Of a stretch of DNA of 64,000 nt, positions 36,406 to 59,658 are shown in pieces. Where the stretch lies: contig JACRGX010000056.1 of the NCBI GenBank assembly GCA_016212185.1, positions 31,240-95,239 on the forward strand. Reading direction: 5' to 3'. Each line of letters begins with the position of its first letter. The stretch's first letter is position 1. The translations under genes and the position numbers were made by a program. This DNA is from Nitrospirota bacterium (GTDB lineage: Bacteria; Nitrospirota; Thermodesulfovibrionia; UBA6902; DSMQ01). Under the pieces are notes generated by a model that saw only the letters and a list, made by a program, of their open reading frames with translations, searched no databases and had not been told where the DNA came from.

Positions 36406-37596
36406 CTATTTACCATTAATGAAGTCGCACCTTACCCTCTTCCCGTCCCAGCGGATGTCAGGTATGAGAGCCTCTTTGCGCGCCTCTATTCTGTTTTTGT
36501 ACTTTATAAGGTCCTTTAACATAATGCCGATTTCATGCTCAATATCATGGGTTGGTTTATATCCAAGGTCAAGAAGGCGCTGATGGTCCGGTTTAAAATA
36601 ATGCTCTTCAAGCTCCTTCCTCGGATTAATCAGATTTCTGATCTGAACATCCAGCCCAAAACTATCGCCGACTTTTTTTACCTTCCCGGCGAGTTCAGTA
36701 ATGTCATAAACCTCCTCAAACTGGTTAAACACTCTGTACTCACCGGCTCCAGGAGGATTCTCAACAGTAATCGCCAAACATTGCATTGAGTCCCTCAAAG
36801 GGAGAAAACCCCTTTTCTGATGTCCCTTGCCATAAGGAGACAGAGGATGCCCTATTACCGCCTCACAGCAAAAACGGTTAATAGCCGTACCAAAGCTCTG
36901 GTCAAAATCCAGTCTGGTCAGCAAACGTTCGTCATCGCCCATCTCGTCAATACGCGTTCCGAATACCACACCCTGCATAATATCCGTTGAGCGCAGGTTC
37001 CATATTCTGCACGCCATCATAACATTGTTGCTGTCATGGACCTTGCTCTGATGATACCAGCTACCGGCCTGTTTTGGAAAAGGCAGGTAATCCTTCCTAC
37101 CCCTGAACTCTACTTCAAAGAATCCCTCGGGAATATCAATTTTAGGCGTCCCATATTCTCCCATGGTCCCCAGTTTAACCAGATGGGACTCAGGACATAT
37201 GTCACGCATGGCATAAAGTATATTAAGGGTCCCAACAATATTATTTACCTGTGTCCATGTGGCGTGTTCAACGTCAATCATGCTGTATGGAGCAGACGGC
37301 ATCTCCCCAAGATGTACTATTGCCTCCGGTTTAAAATGCCTGAAAATATTCTCAATAAAATTATATTCCGTAAGGTTCCCCTTGAAAAACCTTAGGTTCT
37401 TTCCGAAGTTCTCGCGAAAAGCCTCAAGCCTCTCCGTCATTTTACATATAGGGGTTGCAGACTGAGACCCCATCTCTTGTACCCAGTCCCTTCTTAAATA
37501 ATTATCCGCTCCAGAAACCTCATGCCCCCTTTTAGTCAAATACATTGCAAGCGCCCAGCCCAGATAACCGTCAATTCCAGCGATAAAGACTCTCAA
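36406..37596 (-). CDS. UDP-sulfoquinovose synthase homologue (SQD1/SqdB/Agl3-like)
   Basis: Long colinear similarity to plant SQD1 recalled from memory: IAGIDGYLGWA, SAPYSMID, VKLGTMGEYGTP, PKQAGSWYHQSKVHD, DQSFGTAINRFC, GHPLSPYGKGHQKRGFL, FRVFNQFEE. Confidence 0.75.
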   Translation of the reverse strand: MRVFIAGIDGYLGWALAMYLTKRGHEVSGADNYLRRDWVQEMGSQSATPICKMTERLEAFRENFGKNLRFFKGNLTEYNFIENIFRHFKPEAIVHLGEMPSAPYSMIDVEHATWTQVNNIVGTLNILYAMRDICPESHLVKLGTMGEYGTPKIDIPEGFFEVEFRGRKDYLPFPKQAGSWYHQSKVHDSNNVMMACRIWNLRSTDIMQGVVFGTRIDEMGDDERLLTRLDFDQSFGTAINRFCCEAVIGHPLSPYGKGHQKRGFLPLRDSMQCLAITVENPPGAGEYRVFNQFEEVYDITELAGKVKKVGDSFGLDVQIRNLINPRKELEEHYFKPDHQRLLDLGYKPTHDIEHEIGIMLKDLIKYKNRIEARKEALIPDIRWDGKRVRCDFINGK

Positions 37597-37759
37597 ATCA
37601 TCTCCCCCTTTAATTATAATTTATACATATATATTTGCCTTTTTGAAGACTGCTCCGCCCTTTCAGTCACATCTAAGCAACCGGCAGAGTTAAGAGTTAA
37701 AAGTTAATTTTTTCTTTTTTGCACTATAACTCTTAACTTATAACTTTCAACTTTTAACT
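37597..37759 (-). promoter_or_regulatory. leader between NusG paralog and first biosynthetic gene with repeated AACT(T/C)TTAACT motifs, T-tract and inverted repeat
   Basis: gagttaagagttaaaagttaattttttctttttt ... aactcttaacttataactttcaacttttaacttta; position matches where NusG-paralog-dependent antitermination leaders occur. Confidence 0.35.
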
Positions 37760-38281
37760 TTATACTCTCTCAACATTAGCCGCTTCTATCTTTACCGCCA
37801 CTCCCTGACGGAGAATATCAACCGAAAGCACCAGCATATGCTGTCCCAGTTTTTCAACGAGTATTCCCTCAACACCGCTCAGGGAGCCGTATTTAATCCT
37901 TACCCTTTGCCCTTCTTGCAGATATGGATAAGGGTCCAGCGTTTCCTTGCTTTCAATAAGTTTTTTAAGCGATATTATTTGTTCGTCAGGGATAGGCTCA
38001 GGCTCTCCGCGTCCTGCGCCGAGGAGCCGCACCACTCCCTTAATCCGGACCACATTTAATATATCCTGCGACCTTTTTGTTGTATAAACAAATATGTACC
38101 CCGGGAACAGGGGAAATGTAACTGCTTTTTTCCTGTCCTTCCATTTTCTGAGCCGCTCCACTGCAGGCAGAAAAGCCTCAATGCCTTTCATTTTAAGCCT
38201 GTCATACACCTGAAATTCATGACGGGACCTTGTATGGACCGCATACCAGTTCTGTTCTGCATTTGCCGTTAGTTCCATCAT
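37760..38281 (-). CDS. NusG-paralog transcription antiterminator (UpxY/LoaP/RfaH-like)
   Basis: NGN domain WYAVHTRSRHEF..LPGYIFV plus C-terminal KOW (GQRVRIKYGSLSGVEGILVEK). Confidence 0.8.
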   Translation of the reverse strand: MMELTANAEQNWYAVHTRSRHEFQVYDRLKMKGIEAFLPAVERLRKWKDRKKAVTFPLFPGYIFVYTTKRSQDILNVVRIKGVVRLLGAGRGEPEPIPDEQIISLKKLIESKETLDPYPYLQEGQRVRIKYGSLSGVEGILVEKLGQHMLVLSVDILRQGVAVKIEAANVERV

Positions 38282-45146: not shown

Positions 45147-45273
45147 CCGGGTTGCCAGCCTGTTTGTGTTTCAACAGAGCATCCCTTACACCCCGAGTAA
45201 GCGCCTTAGTTATCTTGTCAGGGTCAGCAAAGGCTTCTGCTATTCTGTCTTTATGTTTTTCTTTTACCGCCAT
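45088..45273 (-). CDS. small hypothetical protein, possible partner/antitoxin of downstream P-loop kinase
   Basis: 61 aa; start overlaps kinase gene stop by 23 nt. Confidence 0.3.
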   Translation of the reverse strand: MAVKEKHKDRIAEAFADPDKITKALTRGVRDALLKHKQAGNPVVVWRNGKIVWLKPEEIPV

Positions 45274-45850
45274 ATGTTACCTCAATATTATGCCAGATAT
45301 CTGAATCATTTACCACTAATCCTTGTTTATGATCGCAATAGGCTATCAATGCAGGTTCTTCACCTGAGTTGTCATAAAAAAACCATGTATCCGATAGGGG
45401 GCAATAGAGCTTAAAAAAATTCCTAATACCAGCATGATAACGACGTCTGATGGTTTCTTCAGGAACATTGTGTCCGCCCATACGTACCCTTTCTGCCACA
45501 CGGTCAATAGCAAATTCTTCATTTGGCAGCCATAAAAAAATCAGATGAAGTGCGTAACCTGTCTTACGAAGTTCAGTAATCCATGGAGCAAAAGTACGGC
45601 TTGCTAATGTTGTTTCAAAGGCAAAATCAACACGTTTTTTTGCAAGATAATGTATGCGCTCAAGCATAACACGTCCTGCATGAAAAACTGCGCCTTCAGG
45701 CTGAAATCCGGAGAGACCTTGTGCTATTAGGTCTGCATTAACAAACTCGGTAACCTTAAGCGTACCTTTCAGTAAGGAAGGCGCGGTTGTTGATTTCCCT
45801 GCACCGTTAGGGCCTGCAATAACTATAAGATTTTGCCGCTGAATTTTCAT
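45251..45850 (-). CDS. P-loop kinase of zeta-toxin/AAA_33 type
   Basis: LIVIAGPNGAGKST Walker A; about 200 aa. Confidence 0.5.
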   Translation of the reverse strand: MKIQRQNLIVIAGPNGAGKSTTAPSLLKGTLKVTEFVNADLIAQGLSGFQPEGAVFHAGRVMLERIHYLAKKRVDFAFETTLASRTFAPWITELRKTGYALHLIFLWLPNEEFAIDRVAERVRMGGHNVPEETIRRRYHAGIRNFFKLYCPLSDTWFFYDNSGEEPALIAYCDHKQGLVVNDSDIWHNIEVTYGGKRKT

Positions 45851-45872: not shown

Positions 45873-47051
45873 CTAAACGATTAAGGCTCTATCTGATTTT
45901 TTCATAACCTCAATCAGGGGCTTATTCAGCTTCTCCGCAATTTTTTTGCAGTCTTCATATTCAGGCGCGGATTTCAGAATCTCATTCCCCAGCTTTGAAA
46001 TTTTCACGCGTACATTTCCAAACTCAGTTTTTACTGTCTTAATCTCACGCTGTAATGTAATTCTGTCTGCCTCATAAAATCTTACTCCAATGCTTGTTGT
46101 CTCTTTTAAAATTATTTTGATTAAGCCCTCTTTTTTATCCGCACTGCACAGCACGGTAAGCACTATGCCGGGCCTGTCCTTTTTCATAATTACCTGTGTT
46201 AAAAATACGTCAAGCGCGCCTGCCTTAAAAAGCCTCTCCATAACGTATTCATAAACCTGCGGGTTCATATCGTCAATATTGGTTTCTATAATAGTAACCC
46301 CCTGACCCCTGACCCCTGACCCCTGACCCTCTCCCACAAACACTCTCAAAACATTCGGGTGCGTTTTAAAATCCCTGCCTCCTGCGCCTATGCCGATTTT
46401 AGAAACGCTCATCACGGGCATCTGCCCGAAACCGTCAGCAAGCGAGGATATGAGCACTGCGCCTGTCGGTGTAGTAAGTTCAAATTTTGTATCCGATGAA
46501 TAAACAGGTATGTACTTCAGTAATTCCAAGGTTGCAGGCGCGGGCACGGGCAGTATGCCGTGCTCTGTCTTTATCATGCCGCTTCCTAAATTCAACGGGG
46601 AAGCATAGATTTTTTTTACCCCTAAGATATCCAGTCCGATTAACGCGCCGAAAATATCCACAATGCAGTCAACAGCGCCGAGTTCATGCAGATGGACTTT
46701 ATCAACCCTCTCCCCATGCACCTTTGCCTCTGCCTCAAAAAGCCGTCTAAAGATTGATAAACCTTTCTGCTTTACAATATTGGGAAGGGAAGATTTTTTA
46801 ATTATTCTCTCTATATCCTTCCATCTTCTGACTTCTGACTTCTGACTCCTGACTCCTGTTTTTAAGATGACCTCAATCTTCGTCGCCAAAAATCCCGCGC
46901 GTTTCACTTTCCGTGATTCTAATTCATACCCGCGCATAGGAAGTTTGGAGAGTTCCTTTTTTAATTTTTCAAGGGGAACGCCGGCATCAACCAGCGCGCC
47001 CAGAATCATATCACCGCTTATGCCTGATGAAGTGTCAAAGTATATGATCAT
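45873..47051 (-). CDS. larC: nickel-pincer cofactor biosynthesis protein LarC (DUF111)
   Basis: MIIYFDTSSGISGDMILGALVDAGVP N-terminal hallmark; contains two in-frame heptamer repeat tracts. Confidence 0.8.
   Translation of the reverse strand: MIIYFDTSSGISGDMILGALVDAGVPLEKLKKELSKLPMRGYELESRKVKRAGFLATKIEVILKTGVRSQKSEVRRWKDIERIIKKSSLPNIVKQKGLSIFRRLFEAEAKVHGERVDKVHLHELGAVDCIVDIFGALIGLDILGVKKIYASPLNLGSGMIKTEHGILPVPAPATLELLKYIPVYSSDTKFELTTPTGAVLISSLADGFGQMPVMSVSKIGIGAGGRDFKTHPNVLRVFVGEGQGSGVRGQGVTIIETNIDDMNPQVYEYVMERLFKAGALDVFLTQVIMKKDRPGIVLTVLCSADKKEGLIKIILKETTSIGVRFYEADRITLQREIKTVKTEFGNVRVKISKLGNEILKSAPEYEDCKKIAEKLNKPLIEVMKKSDRALIV
46298..46333. repeat. tandem heptamer (CCCCTGA)x4 inside larC CDS
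   Basis: Encodes GQGSGVRGQGV on minus strand. Confidence 0.8.
46825..46858. repeat. tandem heptamer (CTTCTGA)x3 plus (CTCCTGA)x2 inside larC CDS
   Basis: Encodes GVRSQKSEVRR on minus strand. Confidence 0.8.
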
Positions 47052-47068
47052 AATAGTTCTTCGTTAGT

Positions 47069-47142
47069 GTGTCATTCCCGTGAAAACGGGAATCCAGAAT
47101 ACAAAAAATCTGGATGCCCGATTAAGAATCTCGGGCATAACA
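47069..47142. repeat. MITE/REP-like element between larC and larB
   Basis: tgtcattcccgtgaaaacgggaatccag ... ctggatgcccgattaagaatctcgggcataaca. Confidence 0.6.
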
Positions 47143-47147
47143 GATCC

Positions 47148-47882
47148 TTATAACGTATTTATTTTATGCGCTAAAACCCCGGCGCCGAAGCCATTGTCAA
47201 TGTTCATAACCGCAATGCCCGGAACGCATGAATTAAGCATTGCAAAGAGCGCTGTTAATCCCGCAAAGCTTGTGCCGTAACCGACAGATGTAGGAACAGC
47301 AATCACAGGTTTGTCCGTCATCCCGCCCACAACAGAGGGAAGGGCACCTTCCATGCCTGCAACAACAATTATCACATGCGCTTTTTTCAAATATTCAGCA
47401 TTCCCCATCAGCCTGTGGAGCCCTGCCACCCCTACATCATAAACAGTGGTTACACTGCTTCCAAGAAATTCCGCAGTCACCGCCGCCTCTTCCGCAACAG
47501 CAATATCAGAGGTCCCCGCGGTCAAAACAAGCACATGGCCCTTTTTCTTTATTTCCCCGCCGATTGAGATCATGCCTGATGCAGAATGGAATACGGCATT
47601 TTTTATTTTCAGGGAATTATAAATCCTCTCCGTTGCCTTTGAAATAAGAAGCCTCCGACTCTTTTTATACATTGCCTCTGCAATCTTTATCACCTGCTCC
47701 TCAGTCTTGCCCGCGGCAAAAATAACCTCCGGAACTCCGAGCCTGAGATGCCTGTGGTGGTCCACCTTTGCAAATGAAATGTCCTCATACGGCAGGTGCT
47801 TGAATTTTTTTACTGCCTCATCCACGGAGATACTGCCTGATTTTACAGAATTTAGAATTCGTTGTAATTTTTTATTGTCCAT
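47148..47882 (-). CDS. larB: nickel-pincer cofactor biosynthesis protein LarB (PurE-like)
   Basis: N-terminal extension plus PurE-like fold (VLVLTAGTSDIAVAEEA...VVAGMEGALPSVVGG). Confidence 0.8.
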   Translation of the reverse strand: MDNKKLQRILNSVKSGSISVDEAVKKFKHLPYEDISFAKVDHHRHLRLGVPEVIFAAGKTEEQVIKIAEAMYKKSRRLLISKATERIYNSLKIKNAVFHSASGMISIGGEIKKKGHVLVLTAGTSDIAVAEEAAVTAEFLGSSVTTVYDVGVAGLHRLMGNAEYLKKAHVIIVVAGMEGALPSVVGGMTDKPVIAVPTSVGYGTSFAGLTALFAMLNSCVPGIAVMNIDNGFGAGVLAHKINTL

Positions 47883-47892
47883 AATTTTAACC

Positions 47893-47985
47893 TGTCATTC
47901 CGCACTTGATGCGGAATCCAGGGTTCCCCGTGAAAACAGGGCTCTAAATCCTAATGTCTGGATTCCCGCCTTCGCGGGAATGACA
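47893..47985. repeat. MITE/REP-like element with clear terminal inverted repeats (TGTCATTCCGC ... GCGGGAATGACA)
   Basis: tgtcattccgcacttgatgcggaatccag ggttccccgtgaaaacaggg ... ctggattcccgccttcgcgggaatgaca. Confidence 0.65.
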
Positions 47986-47994
47986 AAAACCATG

Positions 47995-48984
47995 TTAGAA
48001 CTCCGCCTTAAGCGCCCTTGTCATAAGCAATCTTACCGCATCCCCGGGATTTTTACCCTGATAAATAACCTCATAAACCTGCTCAACTATCGGCATTTCT
48101 ACATTATGCTTTTTTGAAAGCTCATAGGCAGACTGTGCAGTCGCCACCCCCTCTGCAACGCTTTTTTTGGCTGAAAGAATGTCTTTGAGCTTTATTCCTT
48201 TGCCGAGATTTATGCCTACGGTATAATTCCTTGAAAGCGGTCCTGTGCAGGTAAGCACAAGGTCGCCAAGCCCGCTTAAGCCTGAAAAGGTCCTCGGGTC
48301 AGCACCCATCGTCTTCCCCAATCTCACAATCTCTGCAAGCCCTCTTGTTATAAGCGCTGCCCTTGCATCATGCCCAAGCCCAAGCCCGTCTGATATGCCT
48401 GACGCTATTGCGATGACGTTCTTGAGCGCGCCGCCAAGCTCAGCCCCAAGCACGTCAGTGTGAGTATAAACCCTGAAATAGTTCGTATTGAAAATTTCCT
48501 GAAGCCTTTGTCCTGTTTCAGGATTGTCTGTTGCAAGCGTAACAGCCGTAGGCAATTTTTTAATCACCTCTTTTGCAAAGCTCGGGCCGGAGAGCGCCGC
48601 CGCCTGCCTGCCTGTGATTTCCCTAATGATTGCCGATACCGTAAGCAGGGTCTTTTGTTCAATGCCCTTTGAGGCGCTGATGATTACGGCGCTTGGCGGA
48701 ATAAGATTTGCCGCTTTTTTAAATATGGCGCGCGTAAACTGCGCCGGCACAACGCTTAATATGCAGTCAGCATTTTTTACCGCATGTTCAATGTCGTCTG
48801 TTGCCTTTAAATTTGCCGGCAGGTACGCCTCAGGAATATATATGCTGTTTGTGTGTGCATTATTAATCTCAACAGCAGTCTCTTTCTCAAACGCCCAGAG
48901 CAGGACCTCATACCCTTTTCCGGCAAGCAGGCTTGCAAGGACCGTTCCCCAGCTTCCGGCGCCTATGACAGTAATGCGTTTCAT
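47995..48984 (-). CDS. gpsA: NAD(P)H-dependent glycerol-3-phosphate dehydrogenase
   Basis: [21 protein letters not shown]; start placed at MKRITV because it abuts the glnS stop (longest ORF extends to 49014). Confidence 0.9.
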
Positions 48985-50660
48985 TTCTTTTGTCCCTTTT
49001 CTATCTTCGCCCATTCATCTTTTAACGTAACCGTGCGGTTAAATACAAGCTTCCCTGCAGATGAATCAGGGTCCACGCAAAAATAACCCAATCGCTCAAA
49101 TTGAAACCTCTCGCATGCTTTTGCGCCAGCAAGCCCCGGCTCTGTCTTGCACAATGTCAATTTTTCAAGAGAGGCTGGATTTAAAGCAGCCTCCTCCGTG
49201 TCAGTCTTTAAAAAAAGCTGGTCGTACAACCTTACCTCCGCAGTGACCGCATGCGGGGCAGAGACCCAGTGCAGGGTTGCTTTGACCTTGCGCTTGTCAG
49301 GCGCATCTCCGCCGCGCGTCTCAGGGTCATATGTGCAGTGAATCTCAATCAGCTCTCCTGTTTGGGGGTCTTTGACAACACTATTGCATTTGATAAAATA
49401 CGCATACCTAAGCCTCACCTCGCGCCCGGGCGCAAGACGGAAAAACTGTTTGGGCGGATCCTCGCGGAAATCCTCCTGTTCAATGTACAGTGTTTTTGAA
49501 AAAGGAACCTTGCGCATTCCCTTTCCCGGGGCTTCGGGATTATTCACTGCGTCAAGCTCTTCACTCTGATTTTCCGGATAGTTTGTTATGATGACCTTAA
49601 GGGGACGGAGCACTGCCATGACGCGCGGCGTTTTCTTGTTTAAATCCTCGCGCACGCAGTATTCAAGCAATGCCGAGTCAACCACGCTGTCCCTTTTGGC
49701 AACACCAATGCGCTCGCAGAAATTTCTTACTGCCTCAGGCGTATAGCCGCGCCTTCTTATGCCTGCTATTGTAGGCATCCTCGGGTCGTCCCATCCCGCA
49801 ACCTGCTTCTCATTCACAAGCCCGATAAGCTTCCTCTTGCTGAGCACCGTGCGGCTCAAATTAAGACGCGCAAACTCTATCTGCTGAGGATGATAAATGT
49901 TCAGCTCATTTAAAAACCAGTCATAAAGCAGGCGGTGGTCTTCAAATTCAAGCGTGCAGATTGAATGTGTGATGCCTTCAATGGAATCCGATATGCAGTG
50001 CGCATAATCATACATCGGATAAATGCACCACTTGTTTCCTGTCCTGTGATGTTCAGCGCGAAGAATGCGGTACATGACCGGGTCGCGCATATTGATATTG
50101 CCCGATGTCATATCAATCATTGCCCTGAGCGTGCGTGAGCCGTCCGGGAATTCTCCCGCGCGCATGCGCTTAAATAAATCTAAGTTTTCCTCAACAGGGC
50201 GGCTGCGATACGGGCTTTCTTTGCCCGGCTCAGTCAACGTTCCGCGGTATTTTCTGATTTCATCAGCGCTCAAATCGCAGACATACGCCTTTCCTTTTTG
50301 AATCAACTGCACGGCATATTCATACATCCGCTCAAAATAATCTGATGCATAATAAAGCCTGTCCTGCCAGTCAAAGCCAAGCCACCTCACATCTTCTTTT
50401 ATTGATTCCACATACTCAACTTCTTCTTTTGACGGGTTTGTGTCATCAAAGCGCAGGTTGCAAAGCCCTTTAAATTCAGCGGCAGCGCCGAAATTAAGGC
50501 AGATGGATTTTGCGTGTCCTATGTGCAGATAGCCGTTTGGCTCCGGCGGAAAGCGGGTATGGACCCGGCTGTCGTTTTTGCCTGTCCGAAGGTCTTCCTT
50601 GATAATCTCCCGGATAAAATCAGCGCGGGAGGCATCGGTTGTGGATATATCTTTTTCCAT
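48981..50660 (-). CDS. glnS: glutaminyl-tRNA synthetase
   Basis: [21 protein letters not shown] motif, about 560 aa. Confidence 0.9.
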
Positions 50661-50730
50661 AAATTATATCTCTTATGCGGGTTTGATGGGATATTTTAAC
50701 ACATTAAGTAGTTTTATCAGAGGGCGTTTT

Positions 50731-52164
50731 CTATCCTATCGTCTTTATCGCCTTGTCCAGTCTCTTCAGCGCTTTTTCCTTGCCCAGCACTTCAAGCACT
50801 TCAAATATCCCCGGGCTTTCCGTGCCGCCGGTCATGGCAACGCGCACAGGCTGTGCAAGGTCTTTAAGCTTGACCCCGTGCTTTTCTGTAACCGCCTTAA
50901 ATGCCCCTTCAAGCTCCTGATGGGAGAATCCTGTAAGGGATATCAGGCTGCTTTTCAGCTCTGATAATAATTCCCTGCTTTTTTCATTTAGAAATTTCTC
51001 TTTTGCTTTTTCGTTGTATTCAACCTCTTCGGCAATATAGTATCTGAGTGAGTTTGCAAGCTCCACCAGCGTCTTTGAACGTTCTTTAAGGGTATTATTT
51101 GCCTTTGACAGCCATTCTTTATTTAATTCCTGCCCCTCGCTGATTATTTTGTCTTTAATAAGAAACAGCAGGACCAGTTCTGCAAGTTTTTCAGCCGGCG
51201 TATTGATAATGTACTGGCCGTTAAGCCAGAGGAGTTTTTCAGGATTAAACACTGCCGCCGCCTTGCCGACATGTTCAAAAGAAAATTTTTCTATCAACTC
51301 TTTGCGGGAAAATATTTCCTGGTCCCCGAAAGACCATCCGAGCCTTACGAGATAGTTAACAAGTGCGTCCGGCAGAAAGCCCATTTCCTGATATGCCATG
51401 ACAGCGGTTGCACCGTGTCTTTTTGAAAGCCGCGTCTTGTCAGCGCCTAAAATCATGGGCAGATGCGCAAATTTAGGAATTTCATAACCGAGCGCCTTGT
51501 AAATGTGTATTTGTTTGGGGGTATTGTTAAGGTGGTCGTCCCCGCGGATGACGTGGGTGATATTCATATCTACATCATCAACAACAACCGTAAAATTGTA
51601 TGTAGGCGTTCCGTCAGAGCGGAGGATAATCAGGTCGTCAAGCTGTGAATTATCAAATATAACCGCCCCTCTTATCAGGTCGTCAACAATAGTCTGCCCG
51701 TCTGCCGGCATTTTAAACCTCACTGCAGCGCCTTGTTCTTGACCCCTTGAATCCTTGACCCCTTGAACCCTTTCTGTCGCTCTGCACCTTCCGTCATATT
51801 TTTGAGGCAGACCTTTTGCCGCCGCCTCTTTGCGCCTTGCCTCAAGCTCTTCAGGGGTGCAGAAGCAATAATACGCCTTGCCCTCTTTCAACAGCTTATC
51901 AACATATCCCCTGTAAACATCAAACCGGTCCGTCTGCCTGAACGGTCCCTCGTCCCATTCAAGCCCAAGCCATTTCATCCCTTCAATTATTGCCTCAATG
52001 TATTCGTCTGTTGAGCGGCTCCTGTCCGTGTCCTCAATTCTTAAAATGAACGCGCCGCCCTGGTGTCTTGCAAGGAGATAGTTGAAAAGCGCTGTTCTTG
52101 CGCCTCCTATGTGAAGGTGCCCGGTCGGGCTTGGTGCAAATCTTACGCGTATTTTATCAGGCAA
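50731..52164 (-). CDS. gltX: glutamyl-tRNA synthetase
   Basis: RFAPSPTGHLHIGGARTALFN; proposed TTG start at 52162-52164 preceded by AAAGGAG RBS (track ORF extends to GTG at 52209). Carries an in-frame repeat-derived insertion. Confidence 0.9.
   Translation of the reverse strand: MPDKIRVRFAPSPTGHLHIGGARTALFNYLLARHQGGAFILRIEDTDRSRSTDEYIEAIIEGMKWLGLEWDEGPFRQTDRFDVYRGYVDKLLKEGKAYYCFCTPEELEARRKEAAAKGLPQKYDGRCRATERVQGVKDSRGQEQGAAVRFKMPADGQTIVDDLIRGAVIFDNSQLDDLIILRSDGTPTYNFTVVVDDVDMNITHVIRGDDHLNNTPKQIHIYKALGYEIPKFAHLPMILGADKTRLSKRHGATAVMAYQEMGFLPDALVNYLVRLGWSFGDQEIFSRKELIEKFSFEHVGKAAAVFNPEKLLWLNGQYIINTPAEKLAELVLLFLIKDKIISEGQELNKEWLSKANNTLKERSKTLVELANSLRYYIAEEVEYNEKAKEKFLNEKSRELLSELKSSLISLTGFSHQELEGAFKAVTEKHGVKLKDLAQPVRVAMTGGTESPGIFEVLEVLGKEKALKRLDKAIKTIG
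51738..51770. repeat. CTTGACCCCTTGAATCCTTGACCCCTTGAACCC repeat inside gltX CDS
   Basis: 27-nt stretch identical (reverse complement) to 56770-56796; encodes VQGVKDSRGQEQG loop. Confidence 0.8.
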
Positions 52165-52195
52165 AATAAAACTCCTTTGAATCCAATTGGCTGGT

Positions 52196-52363
52196 TTACA
52201 GTCTGTCACAGCGGTGGTTTGTTAATTTATCCCATGTGTGTTCGTCTATTTCAGAGATATAGTCCTGTATAGAAAATTCTTTACCGCACCCCGTGCAGTA
52301 TAAGCGGACATGGCTTCAACTGAAAATTACTCTTAGCTCCCCTTCACATTTTTTGCATTTCAT
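52196..52363 (-). CDS. C4 zinc-ribbon small protein with in-frame TGA (selenoprotein candidate, recoded gene or pseudogene)
   Basis: MKCKKCEGELRVIFS-[TGA]-SHVRLYCTGCGKEFSIQDYISEIDEHTWDKLTNHRCDRL*; CxxC-N20-CxxC needs read-through of the TGA at 52316-52318; stem-loop (ACUGCAC-GGG-GUGCGGU) begins about 17 nt after UGA. Confidence 0.35.
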
Positions 52364-52423
52364 TATTGCCCTTTCTCTGTAGTGGAATCAATTTAATTCT
52401 TTATAATATCATATTTTAATTTC

Positions 52424-53524
52424 TTAAGCCTCTTTTATCCTCCCCTTGTTTATCAACATCCTTTTTTTGCCGTTTTTATAAATCATCCATACGGTCGGTT
52501 TGAAAAATATATAGTCCTGATGAAACGGCGTGCTTACCTTGCCTCCGAAGGAGCTGTTGTCGCCAAAGGCGATGTGGATTGTGCCGAGGATTTTTTCGGT
52601 CTCAAGGATGCTGTCAGGTCTTGATGCCTTATCATTAGTTCCAATGCCGAGCTCTGCAATATTTGCATTCTCCGGTCTTTCTGAAAACTTTTTTCTTAAA
52701 AAACCCGCGTATTCTTCTTTCCCTTTTACATCAACGGCTATTCCGTTTTTAACGGTAATTGTTATCGCTGATTTTAATTTTTGTGTCGGCGCCCACTCTA
52801 AAATTAATTTTCCGTTAGCCGTGCCTTCAACTGGCGCAAAATAGACCTCTCCTGCAGGCAGGTTGCTGTAAGCGCCTTTTTGTGTGATAATCCCTGTATC
52901 TGCTTTTGCCTTACGCCCCCTTTTTGAAAATGAAATGTGCGTGCCGTTTGGCGTTCTTATCTTCACCCTGTCTGCTTTATTTATGGTTTGCGCTATTTTT
53001 TCAGTCCTTTCTGCCATTTTCCCCCAGTCAACGTTCATTGCGCCTTTGAGCATTCTCTTTTCAAAAAGCGGCATGCTTGCATAGCGTGCCTTGCATATTT
53101 CCGTAAGAAATCTGCGGAAATTTGTGTGCGTTGTTGAATAGTGTGACAATGCAACTACAATATTGACTGAATCTTTTTTAAATTTTTTTATTATCTTTTC
53201 TGCCTCTTTAAGACTGGCTTTATTTATTTTTTTATCACGCAGGGGCTTAAAAATCTTTTTAGCCTTTAATTCTTTTACTACATTCCTACTAAATGCCTTT
53301 AGCCATAAAGCCTCTGGAGGCTCTGCCCCGTGACTGCCTGTAACCTGATATTTCAGAAAAGCAACTCTCTTTGTAAAATTTTTTCCCTCTTTTGTAATTA
53401 ATTTTGCCGTTTTGGTCAACTCATTACTGTATCTATCCGTAAATACAATAACGCTTTCGCTCTTTTTAATCTTGAAATTTACCTTGTAGATATTTGTTAT
53501 TGTATTTTGAATAACATTTTTCAC
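52424..53524 (-). CDS. aminopeptidase (M29/AmpS-like) family protein
   Basis: C-terminal IAELGIGTNDKA...ILETEKILGTIHIAFGDN resembles M29 family blocks (from memory). Confidence 0.45.
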   Translation of the reverse strand: MKNVIQNTITNIYKVNFKIKKSESVIVFTDRYSNELTKTAKLITKEGKNFTKRVAFLKYQVTGSHGAEPPEALWLKAFSRNVVKELKAKKIFKPLRDKKINKASLKEAEKIIKKFKKDSVNIVVALSHYSTTHTNFRRFLTEICKARYASMPLFEKRMLKGAMNVDWGKMAERTEKIAQTINKADRVKIRTPNGTHISFSKRGRKAKADTGIITQKGAYSNLPAGEVYFAPVEGTANGKLILEWAPTQKLKSAITITVKNGIAVDVKGKEEYAGFLRKKFSERPENANIAELGIGTNDKASRPDSILETEKILGTIHIAFGDNSSFGGKVSTPFHQDYIFFKPTVWMIYKNGKKRMLINKGRIKEA

Positions 53525-53544
53525 ATTAAGCTCCGTATTTTACT

Positions 53545-53604
53545 TGTCATTCCCGCAAGCCCCGAACAAGTTCTAACAAACCGGAATAACTGCGGGGTAT
53601 TTCA
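53545..53604. repeat. truncated MITE/REP-like element (first 29 nt identical to copy at 59721)
   Basis: cttgtcattcccgcaagccccgaacaagt shared exactly. Confidence 0.55.
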
Positions 53605-53922
53605 TTATAATTTATTGTCAAGTCTTTATTCTTTTTTATCTTTATTCTTTAATAATCCTTTTAGAAGTAGTAGTAATAATGTAGGTAGATTTGTGAATTA
53701 AACAGAAACAGCATGATAATTAATTAAAATTAATGTTAAAAACTTCACCGAAAACCATAGAATGTTTTCTTGACAAACAGCAGTTGAAATGATACGCTTT
53801 TAAGTCGGTTATATTTATTTTTAATTAATGAGTAGGTTATAATTCTTTATCCACCAAAAATCCACAGGTATTAACAAATTGCTAAGGAAATAGATAGAAA
53901 AAAGGAAAGTAAAGGTATTAGA

Positions 53923-55005
53923 ATGTCACGCAGATATAATTTTAGCGCAGGACCGGCAATGCTTCCCAAGGAAGTGCTTGAGAAAGCTGCTTCAGAAATG
54001 ATTGACTGGCGCGGCAGCGGTATGTCAATTATGGAAATGAGCCACCGCGACAAGGAATTTATTGCAGTTGCAGAAAAAGCCGAAGCAGACCTGAAAGAGC
54101 TTTTGGCAATACCGCAGAATTATAAGGTTTTGTTTCTTCAGGGCGGGGCTTCGTCTCAGTTTGCCATGGTGCCGATGAACCTTTTAAGAGGCCGGAAGAC
54201 CGCTGATTATATTAATACGGGGCAGTGGTCAAAAAAGGCAATATCAGAGGCAAAGCGTTACTGTAGTGTAAATATTGCCGCGACAAGCGAGCCGACGAAA
54301 TTTACAACAATACCTGAGCCCGCAGAATGGTCCCTGAATCCTGAGGCAGCTTATGTGCACTACACGCCTAATGAAACAATAGGTGGGGTTGAATTTCCGT
54401 ATATTCCTGAAACAGGCAGCGTACCGCTAATTGCCGATATGTCTTCAACAATACTTTCACGGCCGCTAAATGTTTCAAAATTCGGAGTTATTTATGCCGG
54501 TGCGCAGAAAAACATAGGACCTGCAGGGCTGACAATTGTAATTATACGCGAAGATCTAATAGGCGGAGAACTGCCTAGCACCCCGACAATGTTCAGCTAT
54601 AAAATTCATGCCGAAAACAACTCTATGTACAACACCCCGCCCACGTACGGCTGGTATATTGCAGGGCTTGTATTTGAATGGATTAAGCAAAAAGGCGGAC
54701 TAAAGGCAATGGCAGAGATTAACAGGCGCAAGGCGGGGAAGCTCTATAATTTTATAGACAATTCCGCTTTTTATAAAAACCCGGTAAGCATTTCCTGCCG
54801 CTCTTGGATGAATGTGCCGTTTACGCTTGTCAAACAGGAGCTTGACAAGAAATTTCTTGAAGAGGCAGGCAAAGCCGGGCTTGTTGCGCTTAAGGGACAC
54901 CGCTCTGTCGGAGGCCTGAGGGCGAGTATTTACAATGCCATGCCGGAGCAAGGCATTGATGCGCTTATTGAATTTATGGCGGACTTTAAAAAGAGCAATG
55001 CTTAA
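53923..55005 (+). CDS. serC: phosphoserine aminotransferase
   Basis: NFSAGPAMLP N-terminus, 360 aa class-V aminotransferase. Confidence 0.9.
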   Translation: MSRRYNFSAGPAMLPKEVLEKAASEMIDWRGSGMSIMEMSHRDKEFIAVAEKAEADLKELLAIPQNYKVLFLQGGASSQFAMVPMNLLRGRKTADYINTGQWSKKAISEAKRYCSVNIAATSEPTKFTTIPEPAEWSLNPEAAYVHYTPNETIGGVEFPYIPETGSVPLIADMSSTILSRPLNVSKFGVIYAGAQKNIGPAGLTIVIIREDLIGGELPSTPTMFSYKIHAENNSMYNTPPTYGWYIAGLVFEWIKQKGGLKAMAEINRRKAGKLYNFIDNSAFYKNPVSISCRSWMNVPFTLVKQELDKKFLEEAGKAGLVALKGHRSVGGLRASIYNAMPEQGIDALIEFMADFKKSNA

Positions 55006-55041
55006 AATAAAAAAAGGGAGAAGCTTATATGGAGTATTTTT

Positions 55042-55130
55042 TGTCATTCCCGTGCAAACCTGCCTACCGGCAGGCAGATGGGAAGCCAGAGGATTGTTTT
55101 TACTGGATTCCTGCTTTCGCAGGAATTACA
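55042..55130. repeat. MITE/REP-like element between serC and serA
   Basis: tgtcattcccgtgcaaacctgcctaccggcaggcag ... ctggattcctgctttcgcaggaattaca. Confidence 0.55.
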
Positions 55131-55176
55131 GCTTGTTTCCGAAACGTTATATAATATTTGAACAGAAAGAGAAACT

Positions 55177-56766
55177 ATGAAAGTTCTTGTAAGCGACAGC
55201 ATATCTGAGAAAGGCGTTAATATTCTAAAAAAAGCCGGGTTTGATGTAACCGTAAAGACAGGGCTTAAGCCCGAGGAGCTTAAGGCGGAGATCGGCACAT
55301 ACGACGCCCTTATCGTAAGAAGCGCCACAAAGGTGACGGCAGACATCATAAGCGCCGCCAAAAACCTGAAGGTTATAGGACGCGCAGGCTCGGGGCTTGA
55401 CAATGTTGATAAAAACGCCGCCACCAAGCAGGGCATTGTGGTGATGAACACGCCCGGCGGCAATACAATTACCACAGCCGAGCACACAATGGCGCTGCTT
55501 TTTTCCATGGCGAGGCTCATACCGCAGGCAACGGCCTCCATGAAAAGCGGCAAGTGGGAAAAGAAAAAATTTATGGGTATTGAGCTTTACAATAAGACGC
55601 TTGGAATAATAGGTTTTGGCAATATCGGCGCCCATGTGGCGCGTATGGCTCACGGCATAGGGATGAATGTAATTACCTTTGACCCGTTTTTGAATGAGGA
55701 AAAGGCAAAAACGCTGGGCGTTAAGGTCGTGGAGCTTGACGAATTAATACAAAAATCGGATTTTATAACCATACACACACCGCTTACAAACGAAACAAAA
55801 TATCTTATCAATGCGGAAAAAATTGCCATGATGAAAGATGGCGTGAGGATTATTAATGCCGCAAGAGGCGGAATTGTTGATGAAAAGGCGCTTTACAATG
55901 CGCTGAAGTCAGGCAAGGTAGGCGGCGCTGCGCTGGATGTCTTTGAAAAGGAGCCGTCTGACACCGTGTCCTGTCCGCTGCTTGAGAGTGATAACATTAT
56001 CTGCACCCCGCATCTCGGCGCAGCCACAGAAGAGGCGCAGGAAAATGTTGCAATTGCCATTGCAGAGCAGATAGTAGAATACCTTGTCTCAGGGACCATC
56101 AGAAATGCGGTCAACTTCCCCTCGGTGCCTTCAGATGCCCTGCCGAGACTTCAGCCTTACATAAATCTTGCGGAAAGGCTCGGCAGTTTCCTCTCACAGG
56201 GTATAAACGGCGGCATTAATGAGGTCACAATAGAGTTTATGGGCGAGGTGACGAAGCTTACGCTTGCGCCAATAACAATTGCCGTGTTAAAGGGGATTCT
56301 GACGCCCATACTTGAGGAAACGGTCAATTTTGTAAATGCGCCCTTAATTGCAAAGGAACGCGGCATTGCCGTCAGAGAAATTACTACAACCGAGGCCGGT
56401 GATTATCACAGCATGCTTAAGGTCAGGGTAAAGGTTGATTCAAAGGAACACATTGTCGCAGGCGTGCTTTACGGCAAGAAAGAACCGCGCATCATAACAA
56501 TAAATGATTTTGCCATAGAAGTAGTCCCCGAGGGGGCGATGCTGGTGCTGTCAAATGTTGACAAGCCCGGCGTAATTGGGAACGTAGGCACACTGCTTGG
56601 CAAAAACAATATCAATATCGCACGGATGCAGTTTGGGAGGGAGCAGTTAGGCGGCAGGGCCATATCTGTTGTCAGCATAGATACGCCTGCGTCAAAAGAA
56701 ATACTTGCAGAGATAAAAAAACTTCCCAATGTCCTTTCCGTAAAACAGATTTATCTGCCGGTATAA
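55177..56766 (+). CDS. serA: D-3-phosphoglycerate dehydrogenase (with ASB and ACT domains)
   Basis: 529 aa; GIIGFGNIGAHVARMA NAD-binding; C-terminal ACT. Confidence 0.9.
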   Translation: MKVLVSDSISEKGVNILKKAGFDVTVKTGLKPEELKAEIGTYDALIVRSATKVTADIISAAKNLKVIGRAGSGLDNVDKNAATKQGIVVMNTPGGNTITTAEHTMALLFSMARLIPQATASMKSGKWEKKKFMGIELYNKTLGIIGFGNIGAHVARMAHGIGMNVITFDPFLNEEKAKTLGVKVVELDELIQKSDFITIHTPLTNETKYLINAEKIAMMKDGVRIINAARGGIVDEKALYNALKSGKVGGAALDVFEKEPSDTVSCPLLESDNIICTPHLGAATEEAQENVAIAIAEQIVEYLVSGTIRNAVNFPSVPSDALPRLQPYINLAERLGSFLSQGINGGINEVTIEFMGEVTKLTLAPITIAVLKGILTPILEETVNFVNAPLIAKERGIAVREITTTEAGDYHSMLKVRVKVDSKEHIVAGVLYGKKEPRIITINDFAIEVVPEGAMLVLSNVDKPGVIGNVGTLLGKNNINIARMQFGREQLGGRAISVVSIDTPASKEILAEIKKLPNVLSVKQIYLPV

Positions 56767-56769
56767 AAT

Positions 56770-56844
56770 AAGGGGTCAAGGATTCAAGGGGTCAAGTTTA
56801 CGACAATTCACTTGAACCCTTGACCGCAGGAATCCTTGAACCCT
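56770..56844. repeat. inverted-repeat hairpin built from GGGTCAAGG-type units in serA-purA spacer
   Basis: aaggggtcaaggattcaaggggtcaag [loop] cttgaacccttgaccgcaggaatccttgaaccc; left arm identical to gltX internal repeat. Confidence 0.75.
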
Positions 56845-56864: not shown

Positions 56865-58208
<1,344 letters not shown>

Positions 58209-58977: not shown

Positions 58978-59034
58978 GGATGAAGGCAGTTTTATTTTCT
59001 CTTCATCCTTCAGAATTCAACCTTCAACCTTTCA

Positions 59035-59658
59035 ATGAACTACTATCCGGTATATTTAAATCTTAGAGGTAAAAAAGCGGTTGTTGCCGGCGGCGGCAAT
59101 GTTGCGGAAAGAAAAGCGCTGGCCCTGCTGAAGGCAGGCGCCGCTGTTGCGGTTGTCAGCCCAGAGCTTACGGAACGGCTGGGATATCTGAAAAAAAAGG
59201 GCAAAATAACTCATATCAGAAGACAGTATAAAAAAGGCGACCTCAGGAATGCATTTATCGTTGTCGCCTGCACTTCTTCGGAAAAGACCAATACAGAAAT
59301 TGCCCGCAATGCAAAGTGCCTTGTAAATGTCGTTGGTACGCCTTCAGAGGGGAACTTTATTGTCCCCTCTACGGTAAAAAGAGGACATTTGACTATTGCC
59401 GTTTCAACGGGAGGCGTAAGCCCGGCGGTTTCAAAGGCCATCAGGAAAGAGCTTGAAAAGCTTTACGGCAGGGAGTTTGCGCATTATCTCAGGGCGCTTG
59501 TACAGATGCGCAGGAAGGCAATTAAGAAAATAAAAGACATCAAAAAAAGAAGAAAGAAATTTAAAGACCTTGCCTCAGAGGAAATGTTTAATATTCTCAG
59601 GAGCAAGGGCTTTAAAGCCGCCAGTGAGAAAGTAAGACAGTTATTTGATAGGGGATAA
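59035..59658 (+). CDS. precorrin-2 dehydrogenase / sirohydrochlorin ferrochelatase (CysG N-terminal / SirC-Met8 type)
   Basis: YPVYLNLRGKKAVVAGGGNVAERK signature. Confidence 0.8.
   Translation: MNYYPVYLNLRGKKAVVAGGGNVAERKALALLKAGAAVAVVSPELTERLGYLKKKGKITHIRRQYKKGDLRNAFIVVACTSSEKTNTEIARNAKCLVNVVGTPSEGNFIVPSTVKRGHLTIAVSTGGVSPAVSKAIRKELEKLYGREFAHYLRALVQMRRKAIKKIKDIKKRRKKFKDLASEEMFNILRSKGFKAASEKVRQLFDRG

Follow-up and report, generated by a model that had tools for sequence, protein, structure and literature searches.

The present study concerns a 64,000-nucleotide (nt) stretch of the genome of a Nitrospirota bacterium (GenBank assembly GCA_016212185.1, contig JACRGX010000056.1, positions 31,240 to 95,239), hereafter called the window, and the short tandem repeat arrays that it carries. 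Arrays with units of 7 or 8 nt lie in frame inside larC and gltX, which encode the conserved enzymes LarC and glutamyl-tRNA synthetase (GluRS), and between genes, including as a hairpin in the spacer between serA and purA. The initial annotation, made from the letters alone, had proposed that one short mobile or expanding sequence entered these coding loops and the spacer, and that larC may be phase-variable. The results obtained here show that such arrays populate tolerant loops and spacers throughout the lineage, and that their units turn over while the reading frame is kept.

Results

Tandem arrays in the window

Arrays were called with Tandem Repeats Finder (TRF), and the tract sequences were also inspected directly. 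Both confirmed the tract positions that had been assigned in larC, gltX, and the serA-purA spacer, and the names given to the four genes were borne out, for larC and gltX by Pfam matches (Table 1). The census of the window is six arrays in 64 kb; three of these are read in frame within conserved enzymes, with larC hosting two and gltX the third. The array at 59001-59031 is the least convincing of the six. Among periods of 5-12, period 7 prevails in the window and its close relatives, and almost none were found at outgroup loci.

Table 1. Genes and repeat features of the window (copy numbers and match percentages from TRF)
Feature	Position	Strand	Unit, copies, and period	Description
larC	45873..47051	minus		Nickel-pincer cofactor biosynthesis protein LarC (PF01969, E=1e-147); hosts two in-frame heptamer arrays
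larC site 2 array	46299..46329	minus	Sense (GGGGTCA) x4.4 (plus-strand CCCCTGA); period 7	100% matches
larC site 1 array	46825..46858	minus	Sense (GAAGTCA/GGAGTCA) x4.9 (plus-strand CTTCTGA/CTCCTGA); period 7	96% matches
gltX	50731..52209	minus		GluRS (PF00749 and PF19269); hosts in-frame octamer array
gltX array	51738..51772	minus	Sense (GGNNTCAA) x4.4; period 8	Alternatively called as period 16 (94% matches)
serA	55177..56766	plus		SerA open reading frame (ORF)
serA-purA spacer hairpin	56770..56844	plus		Inverted arrays without a gene; spacer of 98 nt; purA ribosome-binding site afterwards
Hairpin, left arm	56770..56796		x3.4; period 8	
Hairpin, loop	56797..56810			
Hairpin, right arm	56811..56844			
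purA	56865..58208	plus		PurA ORF
Second intergenic inverted heptamer array	37686..37761		(AGAGTTA) x3, 19-nt gap, (TAACTYT) x5	Flanked by ORFs 36406-37596(-) and 37760-38281(-); fold z -1.9 to -3.0
Degenerate intergenic heptamer array	59001..59031	plus	(CTTCAAC) x4.4	75% matches; before ORF 59035-59658, beside a short hairpin

In-frame translation agreed exactly with the peptides that had been quoted for the coding tracts. The larC site 1 array encodes GVRSQKSEVRR (LarC residues ~66-76), between a strand (54-63) and a helix (77-86), and the site 2 array encodes GQGSGVRGQGV (residues ~242-252) in a beta-hairpin turn. The gltX tract is read as VQGVKDSRGQEQG, in which the array peptide is VQGVKDSRGQE and directly follows the third zinc-ligand Cys (YDGRCR). 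The coding inserts are direct tandem arrays of 31-35 nt with no internal palindrome, unlike a palindromic element of ~100-150 bp. The in-gene copies are solo, and the arrays of the spacers at 56770-56844 (14-nt loop) and 37686-37761 are inverted pairs. For the mRNA of larC site 2, (GGGGUCA)4GGGGG, a four-layer RNA G-quadruplex is predicted, with an energy of -30.6 kcal/mol versus -3.2 kcal/mol for the canonical fold.

Two unit families were distinguished. The larC tracts are true heptamers (NNGTCAG on the sense strand), and the gltX and spacer tracts share an 8-nt unit, GGNNTCAA, which had been grouped with the heptamers in error. The 27-mer AAGGGGTCAAGGATTCAAGGGGTCAAG occurs exactly twice in the window, at 51738-51764(-) in gltX and at 56770-56796(+) in the left arm of the spacer hairpin, and this previously noted identity is exact; no match with up to 3 mismatches was obtained in 100 shuffles of the sequence. 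Degenerate scans of the window for the two motifs gave 6 matches versus 0.04 expected and 7 versus 0.19 expected. The idea of one sequence in both loops and spacers therefore holds in part. The octamer is dispersed and occupies both a coding loop and a spacer, but a single sequence is not shared by all four places; GTCAGNN heptamers and TCAAGGNN octamers seldom co-occur elsewhere, with 3 GTCAGNN heptamer tracts in 0.72 Mb of octamer-bearing contigs.

Tract loops in LarC and GluRS orthologues

LarC and GluRS of the window are 100% identical to proteins of a 'Nitrospirae bacterium' metagenome-assembled genome (MAG), and their next relatives are named Nitrospirae, Thermodesulfovibrionia, or Thermodesulfovibrionales, in agreement with the non-cyanobacterial host that had been assumed. 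In a species-representative genome collection, LarC relatives reached an identity of 66% at most. The loops were compared among the 120 best LarC relatives (61-86% identity) and among 120 GluRS orthologues.

Both LarC tract sites are hypervariable loops. The site 1 loop is usually 14 amino acids (aa) long and holds one and a half 7-aa periods. Its repeat peptides differ by genome (EVRSQKS, GVRGQGS, SAVSGQR, EHRTQNT, SSQFTVH, QDARYKM, and LSALSSQ). Because three heptamers amount to 21 nt, or 7 codons, peptides with a 7-aa period are the signature of near-perfect heptamer arrays. At site 1, the residue identity at a lag of 7 was 0.33 versus 0.06-0.10 at other lags, and 62 of the 120 proteins had at least three matches; at site 2, the lag-7 identity was 0.13 and the periodicity was found in 22 of the 120. 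In more distant LarC proteins, which come from other phyla, the loops are short (9-11 aa) and lack periodicity, and site 1 typically ends in HRH. In the AlphaFold model of the window LarC, the mean predicted local distance difference test score (pLDDT) is 85, and the only segments below 50 are residues 68-70 and 244-249, which are the two tract loops.

The GluRS loop is a compact CRNLKEPVPGE in many orthologues. Others carry octamer-encoded inserts (VQGVEGSRGQ and VQGFKGSRVQ) or heptamer-encoded inserts (KIQDSRFKIQ and KMQDTRCKMQ). Relative to its closest solved relative, Escherichia coli GluRS (8I9I, E=7e-145), the window GluRS has a 6-residue insertion, which aligns after Cys125 of the E. 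coli enzyme and overlies the fourth zinc-ligand position. The AlphaFold model of the window GluRS (mean pLDDT 65.5) was too poor to place this loop. We also noted that the three zinc-site Cys residues of E. coli (CxC...C) are kept in the GluRS of this clade (YDGRCRA at 51780-51800 in the window), and that the array loop starts at the site of the fourth ligand; this residue is His127 in the E. coli enzyme and Ala, Asn, or Asp in the clade. These comparisons bear out two earlier expectations, namely, that the inserts are lineage-specific and that they lie in loops.

The peptides themselves may be the selected features, such as flexible hydrophilic linkers that replace the His-rich LarC loop, with the periodicity of the DNA being incidental. 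The loop of ~14 aa at site 1 in most close orthologues and the hydrophilic character of the peptides are consistent with this explanation. However, the peptides vary freely over near-perfect heptamer DNA arrays, the tract loops have very low model confidence, and the units recur in non-coding spacers. We consider selection on the peptides to be highly improbable.

Turnover of the arrays in close relatives

A syntenic groundwater contig (L002; gltX-glnS-gpsA-larB-larC) has 86-92% DNA identity to the window, and its units differ from those of the window at all three coding sites. At the gltX site, (GGNNTCAA) x4.4 in the window corresponds to (AAGATRC) x4.9 in L002. At larC site 1, GAAGTCA/GGAGTCA in the window corresponds to alternating GCGTCAG/GAGTCAG of equal length, and at site 2, (GGGGTCA) x4.4 corresponds to degenerate CARGATR units. 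The gltX array of L002 resembles its own larC site 2 array. A relative that is more distant than L002 (L085; 79% GluRS aa identity) retains the gltX octamer array of the window with two nt different. Because L085 keeps the gltX unit and L002 replaces it, the arrays are old in the clade and can be replaced wholesale in a single lineage. An EVRSQKSEVRR-type peptide at larC site 1 is also common to several orthologues at 63-71% identity. Given the sharing of both the gltX tract and this peptide, a recent colonisation of this genome is not supported.

Tract lengths were equal in L002, L003, and L004, which are three independent assemblies of one population, and in L001 compared with L002. In close relatives, the repeat unit changes at a fixed site, in a fixed frame, and at roughly constant length. 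On a metagenome contig (L197:150-1330), cbiD/cbiE-like genes contain at least four in-frame heptamer arrays, with the peptides KEVRSQKS, LNSELRTPN, GKVRSQESGV, and IRSQESGVRGQ, plus a CACGCAT array. Since at least four in-frame arrays occur on this contig, the process that generates arrays appears to act genome-wide, and arrays in genes would be its survivors.

The suggestion of phase variation in larC needs to be weighed against these data. If the tracts were contingency loci, slippage by one unit would frameshift larC (and gltX) and make expression phase-variable. Neither 7 nor 8 nt is divisible by 3, and the array at larC site 2 is perfect; both facts are compatible with such a switch. However, all ~120 LarC and ~120 GluRS orthologues are read in frame through the loops, tract lengths are equal in the close relatives described above, and the tracts hold just 4-5 copies. 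Furthermore, the hosts are housekeeping enzymes, and not surface, restriction-modification, or virulence genes or their promoters. Phase variation is thus unsupported, since neither a frameshifted nor a length-variant copy was encountered and gltX is an essential gene. We concluded that the arrays are not phase-variation switches, and contingency loci are a very unlikely explanation.

Small palindromes also occur in frame, nested in or beside the arrays in the loops of LarC and GluRS orthologues (P0003-P0119 and P0133-P0236), and further palindromic inserts are found at L005:10184-10252, L006:4712-4786, and L008:3892-3948. The palindrome TCCCGAATAAGTCGGGA encodes SRISRD and is present in both the LarC and GluRS loops, and CCTGCCTACCGGACAGGCAGG encodes PTGQAG. 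Others include PLxKGG-type hairpins and a CHSRENGNPEKNKLDSCFRRNDE element of ~25 aa (CHSRENGNP...FRRNDE among the encoded peptides). These inserts resemble in-frame colonists of the kind represented by miniature inverted-repeat transposable elements or Rickettsia palindromic elements (RPEs).

Two observations on the neighbouring genes are added. In the window and in L002, glnS adjoins gltX (48981-52209 in the window) in the same orientation, and both GlnRS and GluRS are encoded. The slot directly downstream of larC holds a Zeta-toxin/AAA-like ORF in the window, at 45251-45850(-), and a PhdYeFM/ParE toxin-antitoxin pair in L002 (L002:6998-7605), and it looks variable.

The serA-purA hairpin and the octamer family

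The serA-purA spacer RNA is predicted to fold into an imperfect hairpin of 75 nt (56771-56844; -35.8 kcal/mol, z=-5.2). Scans of the spacer for a promoter, a terminator, and Rfam families yielded one chance match at E=1 and nothing else, and no orthologous spacer was recovered from the serA-purA regions of relatives.

The octamer query TCAAGGRKTCAAGGRKTCAAG was scanned in metagenome contigs of the Joint Genome Institute, and the counts given for this family are those among the matches listed. The family comprises at least 120 metagenome stretches with G+C contents of 0.30-0.70 and in many contexts. An inverted downstream partner was present for 47 of 158 tracts, with gaps of 13-45 nt, 83-264 nt, or up to ~600 nt; hairpins with gaps of 13-45 nt are of the window type. 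Of 120 unrelated metagenome contigs, 3 contained the exact 27-mer of the window, and a 25-mer of it was found in one viral contig. A recent local gene conversion between gltX and the spacer was considered as the source of their identity, and it is weakened by these occurrences. The shared 27-mer may instead be the canonical arm sequence of the family.

PF05635 cassettes and their flanking arrays

Long members of the octamer family hold an ORF of ~120 aa, which is a PF05635/TIGR02436 'four helix bundle protein' (E=6e-42; Pfam and NCBIfam). PF05635 is the protein of the 23S rRNA intervening sequence (IVS) and a distant relative of Avd of diversity-generating retroelements. The family has been described as uncharacterised (bioRxiv 10.1101/2024.02.27.582315). 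Members of intermediate length contain remnants of PF05635 genes with internal deletions or stop codons (e.g., L142 and L148). PF05635 genes or remnants lay within 150 nt of a tract in 15 of 120 loci among the matches listed, and any PF05635 match was found in 2 of 86 control loci (1.3 Mb). The complete cassette is ~0.5 kb long and consists, in order, of an outer inverted repeat, an array, the PF05635 four-helix-bundle gene, and an inverted array. L273-L275 and many metagenome loci carry this outer repeat, TCTCCAAnnnAGTTGG ... CCAACTnnnTTGGAGAAGAACC. Close homologues of the PF05635 protein number in the thousands and come mostly from short contigs. PF05635 genes were co-oriented with their neighbours in operon spacers, such as those of a flagellin-domain gene and csrA, of Alg14 and Alg13, and upstream of purB.

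The inner ends of the window hairpin were compared with those of the cassettes. Two cassettes from Nitrospirae/Nitrospiraceae MAGs have the arms GGATTCAAGGGGTC... and CACTTGAACCCTTGAATCC..., and their right junction matches TTCACTTGAACCCTTGACC of the window. Arm units of the form GGNNTC(A/G)AG and the inner junction TCAAGT...CACTTGA(A/C)CC are present in the window as ...GGGGTCAAGT...TTCACTTGAACCCTTGACC, and the cassettes L206, L211, and L273-L275 have CACTTGAACCCTTGAATCC. The arm type of the window and the CACTTGAACCCTTGA junction recur in the PF05635 cassettes of Nitrospirae MAGs, and also in short-loop hairpins of metagenomic and viral contigs. These results show that the octamer hairpin belongs to a cross-phylum family with full members that bear PF05635.

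The association extends to PF05635 genes that were not selected by the octamer. Seven of eight such genes are flanked by other arrays of 7-9 nt, mostly inverted, with units that include TAACGAT, GAAGATA, GTTCGGA, CGGTTAG, AGTGAAT, CTCAACC, and AAACGCAAT. Further array-flanked PF05635 loci are L005:6900-7250, L005:9480-9990, L143, L168, L174, L183, and L273-L275. In a plasmid collection, 36 of 72,556 records contained a PF05635 homologue; 30 of the 36 are cyanobacterial, mostly from Nostocales, the classical taxa of short tandemly repeated repetitive (STRR) sequences. All eight plasmid PF05635 genes that were checked adjoin arrays (L264-L271), and the unit varies from case to case. The flanking unit is CTTCTGC/CCTCTGC on the alpha and gamma plasmids of Nostoc PCC 7120, AGGGTGT upstream and ACACCCT downstream on a Calothrix NIES-22 plasmid, CTCCTGCC on a Gemmatirosa plasmid, and GGTTCAA and CCTTGAA on a Riemerella plasmid. 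The array upstream of the gene on an N. punctiforme plasmid is TCAGGAG/TCAGAAG, which is identical in unit to larC site 1. A Stanieria plasmid also has arrays adjoining the gene, and on plasmid pPg_01 of Pseudanabaena galeata (L268, 45868-47024) AAAAGCT x14 and AAAAGCC x10 flank it. The gene and arrays of pPg_01 are located between cas6 and cas4 of a CRISPR-Cas locus. As a background, 50 kb of Nostoc plasmid alpha contained two period-7 tracts, one of which adjoins the PF05635 gene. The flanking of PF05635 genes by arrays of 7-9 nt is strongly shown by these data.

Base composition of the window

The segment at ~52000-54000, which includes the divergent intergenic region 53525-53922, has the lowest G+C content of the window (0.376). 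The GC skew changes from negative to positive at ~54 kb, which may merely reflect a switch in gene orientation.

Discussion

Origin and maintenance of the arrays

The most probable interpretation of the present results is that STRR-type arrays are abundant in the Thermodesulfovibrionia lineage, where they persist as survivors in the loops of proteins and as hairpins in spacers, with turnover of the unit and without a function as a phase switch. Spacer arrays occur as inverted pairs with long hairpins, and those within genes survive only as single, stop-free, in-frame arrays in disordered surface loops. We propose that arrays form or insert all over the genome and that genes retain them only where they do no harm. 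Selection would then act as a filter on a general process of insertion or expansion. Both LarC loops and the GluRS loop were probably occupied in a common ancestor of the clade, and their arrays turned over afterwards, with units changing even between genomes of ~89% DNA identity. Turnover may involve either slippage with subsequent re-homogenisation or the copying of other arrays into the site.

A simpler explanation is that the arrays are purely local microsatellites, which would be generated at each site by slippage, with the heptamer as the most slippage-prone length; they would not be copied from locus to locus and would be unrelated to any element. An excess of heptamers among long simple sequence repeats is general in bacteria, and the conservation of the site and length while the unit drifts may be explained in this manner, as may the absence of significant sharing between the arrays of LarC sites 1 and 2. 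However, independent slippage does not readily account for an exact 27-mer in gltX and in a spacer 5 kb away, or for the same 27-mer and a 25-mer in unrelated metagenomic and viral contigs. Moreover, the gltX tract of L002 was exchanged for another period and unit resembling those of its own larC site 2, small palindromes are nested within arrays at orthologous loops, and arrays are strongly tied to PF05635 genes. A purely local origin is therefore unlikely.

The arrays may alternatively be putative sites for a multimeric nucleic acid-binding protein, with the spacer arrays being regulatory and the in-frame copies tolerated by-products. Candidate binders are an IHF/HU-type 'global regulator', as assumed for Geobacter, a cold-shock protein, or a pentameric Avd-like PF05635 protein, in which approximately five units would match five subunits. 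The copy number is typically 4-5, as in the Geobacter classes, and arrays are located in operon spacers directly upstream of ribosome-binding sites. The arrays that flank PF05635 genes vary in sequence and are constant in architecture, as expected if the protein and its site co-evolve. However, the window contains arrays without any PF05635 gene, and the in-gene position of the in-frame arrays makes regulation unlikely. We regard a role as binding sites as rather improbable.

The preferred interpretation, survival of a lineage-wide repeat in tolerant places, leaves the relationship to the PF05635 cassettes to be considered. PF05635 genes may be the coding cores of widely distributed miniature cassettes that end in inverted arrays with units of 7-8 nt. 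The STRR-type arrays of cyanobacteria, Geobacter, Nitrospirota, and further groups, among them the in-frame larC and gltX arrays and the spacer hairpins of the window, may be their solo arms, gene-less hairpins, or cognate binding sites. We put this forward tentatively, as a possibility that we presently consider doubtful. The derivation of the window arrays from PF05635 cassettes is putative, as is any causal link. In the preferred interpretation, the window hairpin is a putative gene-less derivative of a cassette that lost its gene. Its role is most plausibly at the RNA level, by analogy with the IVSs of 23S rRNA that are cleaved by RNase III; the hairpin may act as a processing or stabilising stem.

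Several results weigh against the preferred interpretation. The outer inverted repeat TCTCCAAnnnAGTTGG ... CCAACTnnnTTGGAGAAGAACC is absent from the flanks of the window hairpin (56770-56844), and tblastn searches with three PF05635 proteins (E<=0.01) detected no PF05635 gene or remnant in the 64-kb window. When LarC sites 1 and 2 were compared within each protein, tripeptide sharing amounted to 16 versus 13.2 expected (p=0.22). Heptamer units of separate elements were more alike within a contig than between contigs (2.30 versus 2.71 mismatches, p=0.001), but this comparison is confounded by G+C content and is weak evidence. In viral contigs, the real octamer unit was found in 23 stretches, 10 of which were multi-copy, and the scrambled-unit controls were found in 10, 4, and 10 stretches; with just 2-6 times the control level, the enrichment is modest.

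Heptamer repeats of the STRR type have been catalogued since 1990, and their origin and function are without an accepted explanation. In more than 100 relatives, arrays occupy these three loops of LarC and GluRS, with fast turnover of the unit and a strictly kept frame, which shows protein structure filtering repeat DNA. This pattern also calls for caution in annotation, as low-complexity loops with a 7-aa period in LarC and GluRS are footprints of repeat DNA and not functional motifs. The most novel by-product of the present study is the systematic link between PF05635 and the arrays. If true, this link provides a concrete protein candidate for the STRR problem and a genomic role for TIGR02436, a large family of unknown function. 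We found no account of this association in the literature searched, although this absence is not proof of novelty.

Comparison with known systems

The heptanucleotide STRR sequences of cyanobacteria were reportedly described by Mazel et al. in 1990, and the unit of STRR1 is CCCCAGT. These repeats are summarised in PMC4692102 and PMC4679880, and the likeness to them that had been suggested for the window is real. Both consist of heptamer arrays, with several unit families per genome and frequent inverted intergenic pairs, and the arrays on Nostocales plasmids flank PF05635 genes, as in the metagenomic cassettes. In contrast to STRR sequences, the window has other units and a non-cyanobacterial host, and three of its six arrays are in frame inside conserved enzymes.

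RPEs, which Ogata et al. are said to have described in 2000, are inserted in frame in protein-coding genes of Rickettsia (see also PMC1779305). Both RPEs and the window arrays represent selfish repeat DNA that is tolerated in frame at surface regions of conserved proteins. The LarC insert lies in a loop with the fold of the protein kept (mean pLDDT 85), and the GluRS insert was placed by alignment alone. The two differ in form, because RPEs are palindromes of ~100-150 bp, whereas the coding inserts of the window are non-palindromic tandem arrays of 31-35 nt.

The IVSs in the 23S rRNA of Leptospira and Coxiella carry a PF05635 ORF. Similar to these IVSs, the PF05635 cassettes are small, have inverted sequences that form a long stem, and occupy tolerant insertion sites. 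In both the metagenomic and the Nitrospirae cassettes, the arms consist of the octamer arrays that also make up the window hairpin, which, unlike an IVS, has no gene and is outside rRNA.

Dispersed G-rich heptamer arrays (GGGAATC/GGGGAYT), some of them inverted, have been described in Xanthomonas and Nostoc (Rehm et al. 2015, PMC4692102). They share loci in related species, vary widely in length and sequence, and are capable of forming G-quadruplexes (PMC4692102), a property that larC site 2 has by prediction at the RNA level. These repeats are mostly intergenic, near the ends of ORFs, and have different units, whereas the window has arrays inside genes. TAACTGA arrays are found in Beggiatoaceae, cyanobacteria, and some Bacteroidetes (PMC4679880). 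Among long simple sequence repeats, heptamers show the strongest over-representation in many bacteria, for which polymerase slippage was proposed (Mrazek 2007, cited in PMC4692102 and PMC4679880).

The closest precedent is Geobacter metallireducens (Aklujkar et al. 2009, PMC2700814), the multicopy elements of which include 49 of the 'H4' type, each made of four GGACCGG heptamers. This genome also has solo and paired arrays of 7-8 nt within and between genes. Its paired sites comprise class 1 (GTTGCTYN x4), class 2 (TCTCCGTS[Y] x3; 8-9 nt), and class 3 (MTYCTGA x5), and the pairs lie on opposite strands at variable distances in the spacers of biosynthetic operons, such as proB-proA (PMC2700814). 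The authors guessed that these sites bind a global regulator of the IHF/HU type (PMC2700814). Both genomes have 3-5 tandem units of 7-8 nt, and the class 3 consensus fits the larC site 1 units CTTCTGA and CTCCTGA. The hosts differ in phylum, with Desulfobacterota in the case of Geobacter and Nitrospirota in the present study, and the conservation of the occupied loops across orthologues, the turnover of units, and a link to PF05635 were not part of the Geobacter account. We found no report of heptamer repeats in Nitrospirota in the literature searched. With precedents in Geobacter, Xanthomonas, and Beggiatoaceae, the non-cyanobacterial context is not in itself the novelty that it had appeared to be. 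The features of the window are a Nitrospirota addition to a known, mechanistically unexplained class of repeat DNA.

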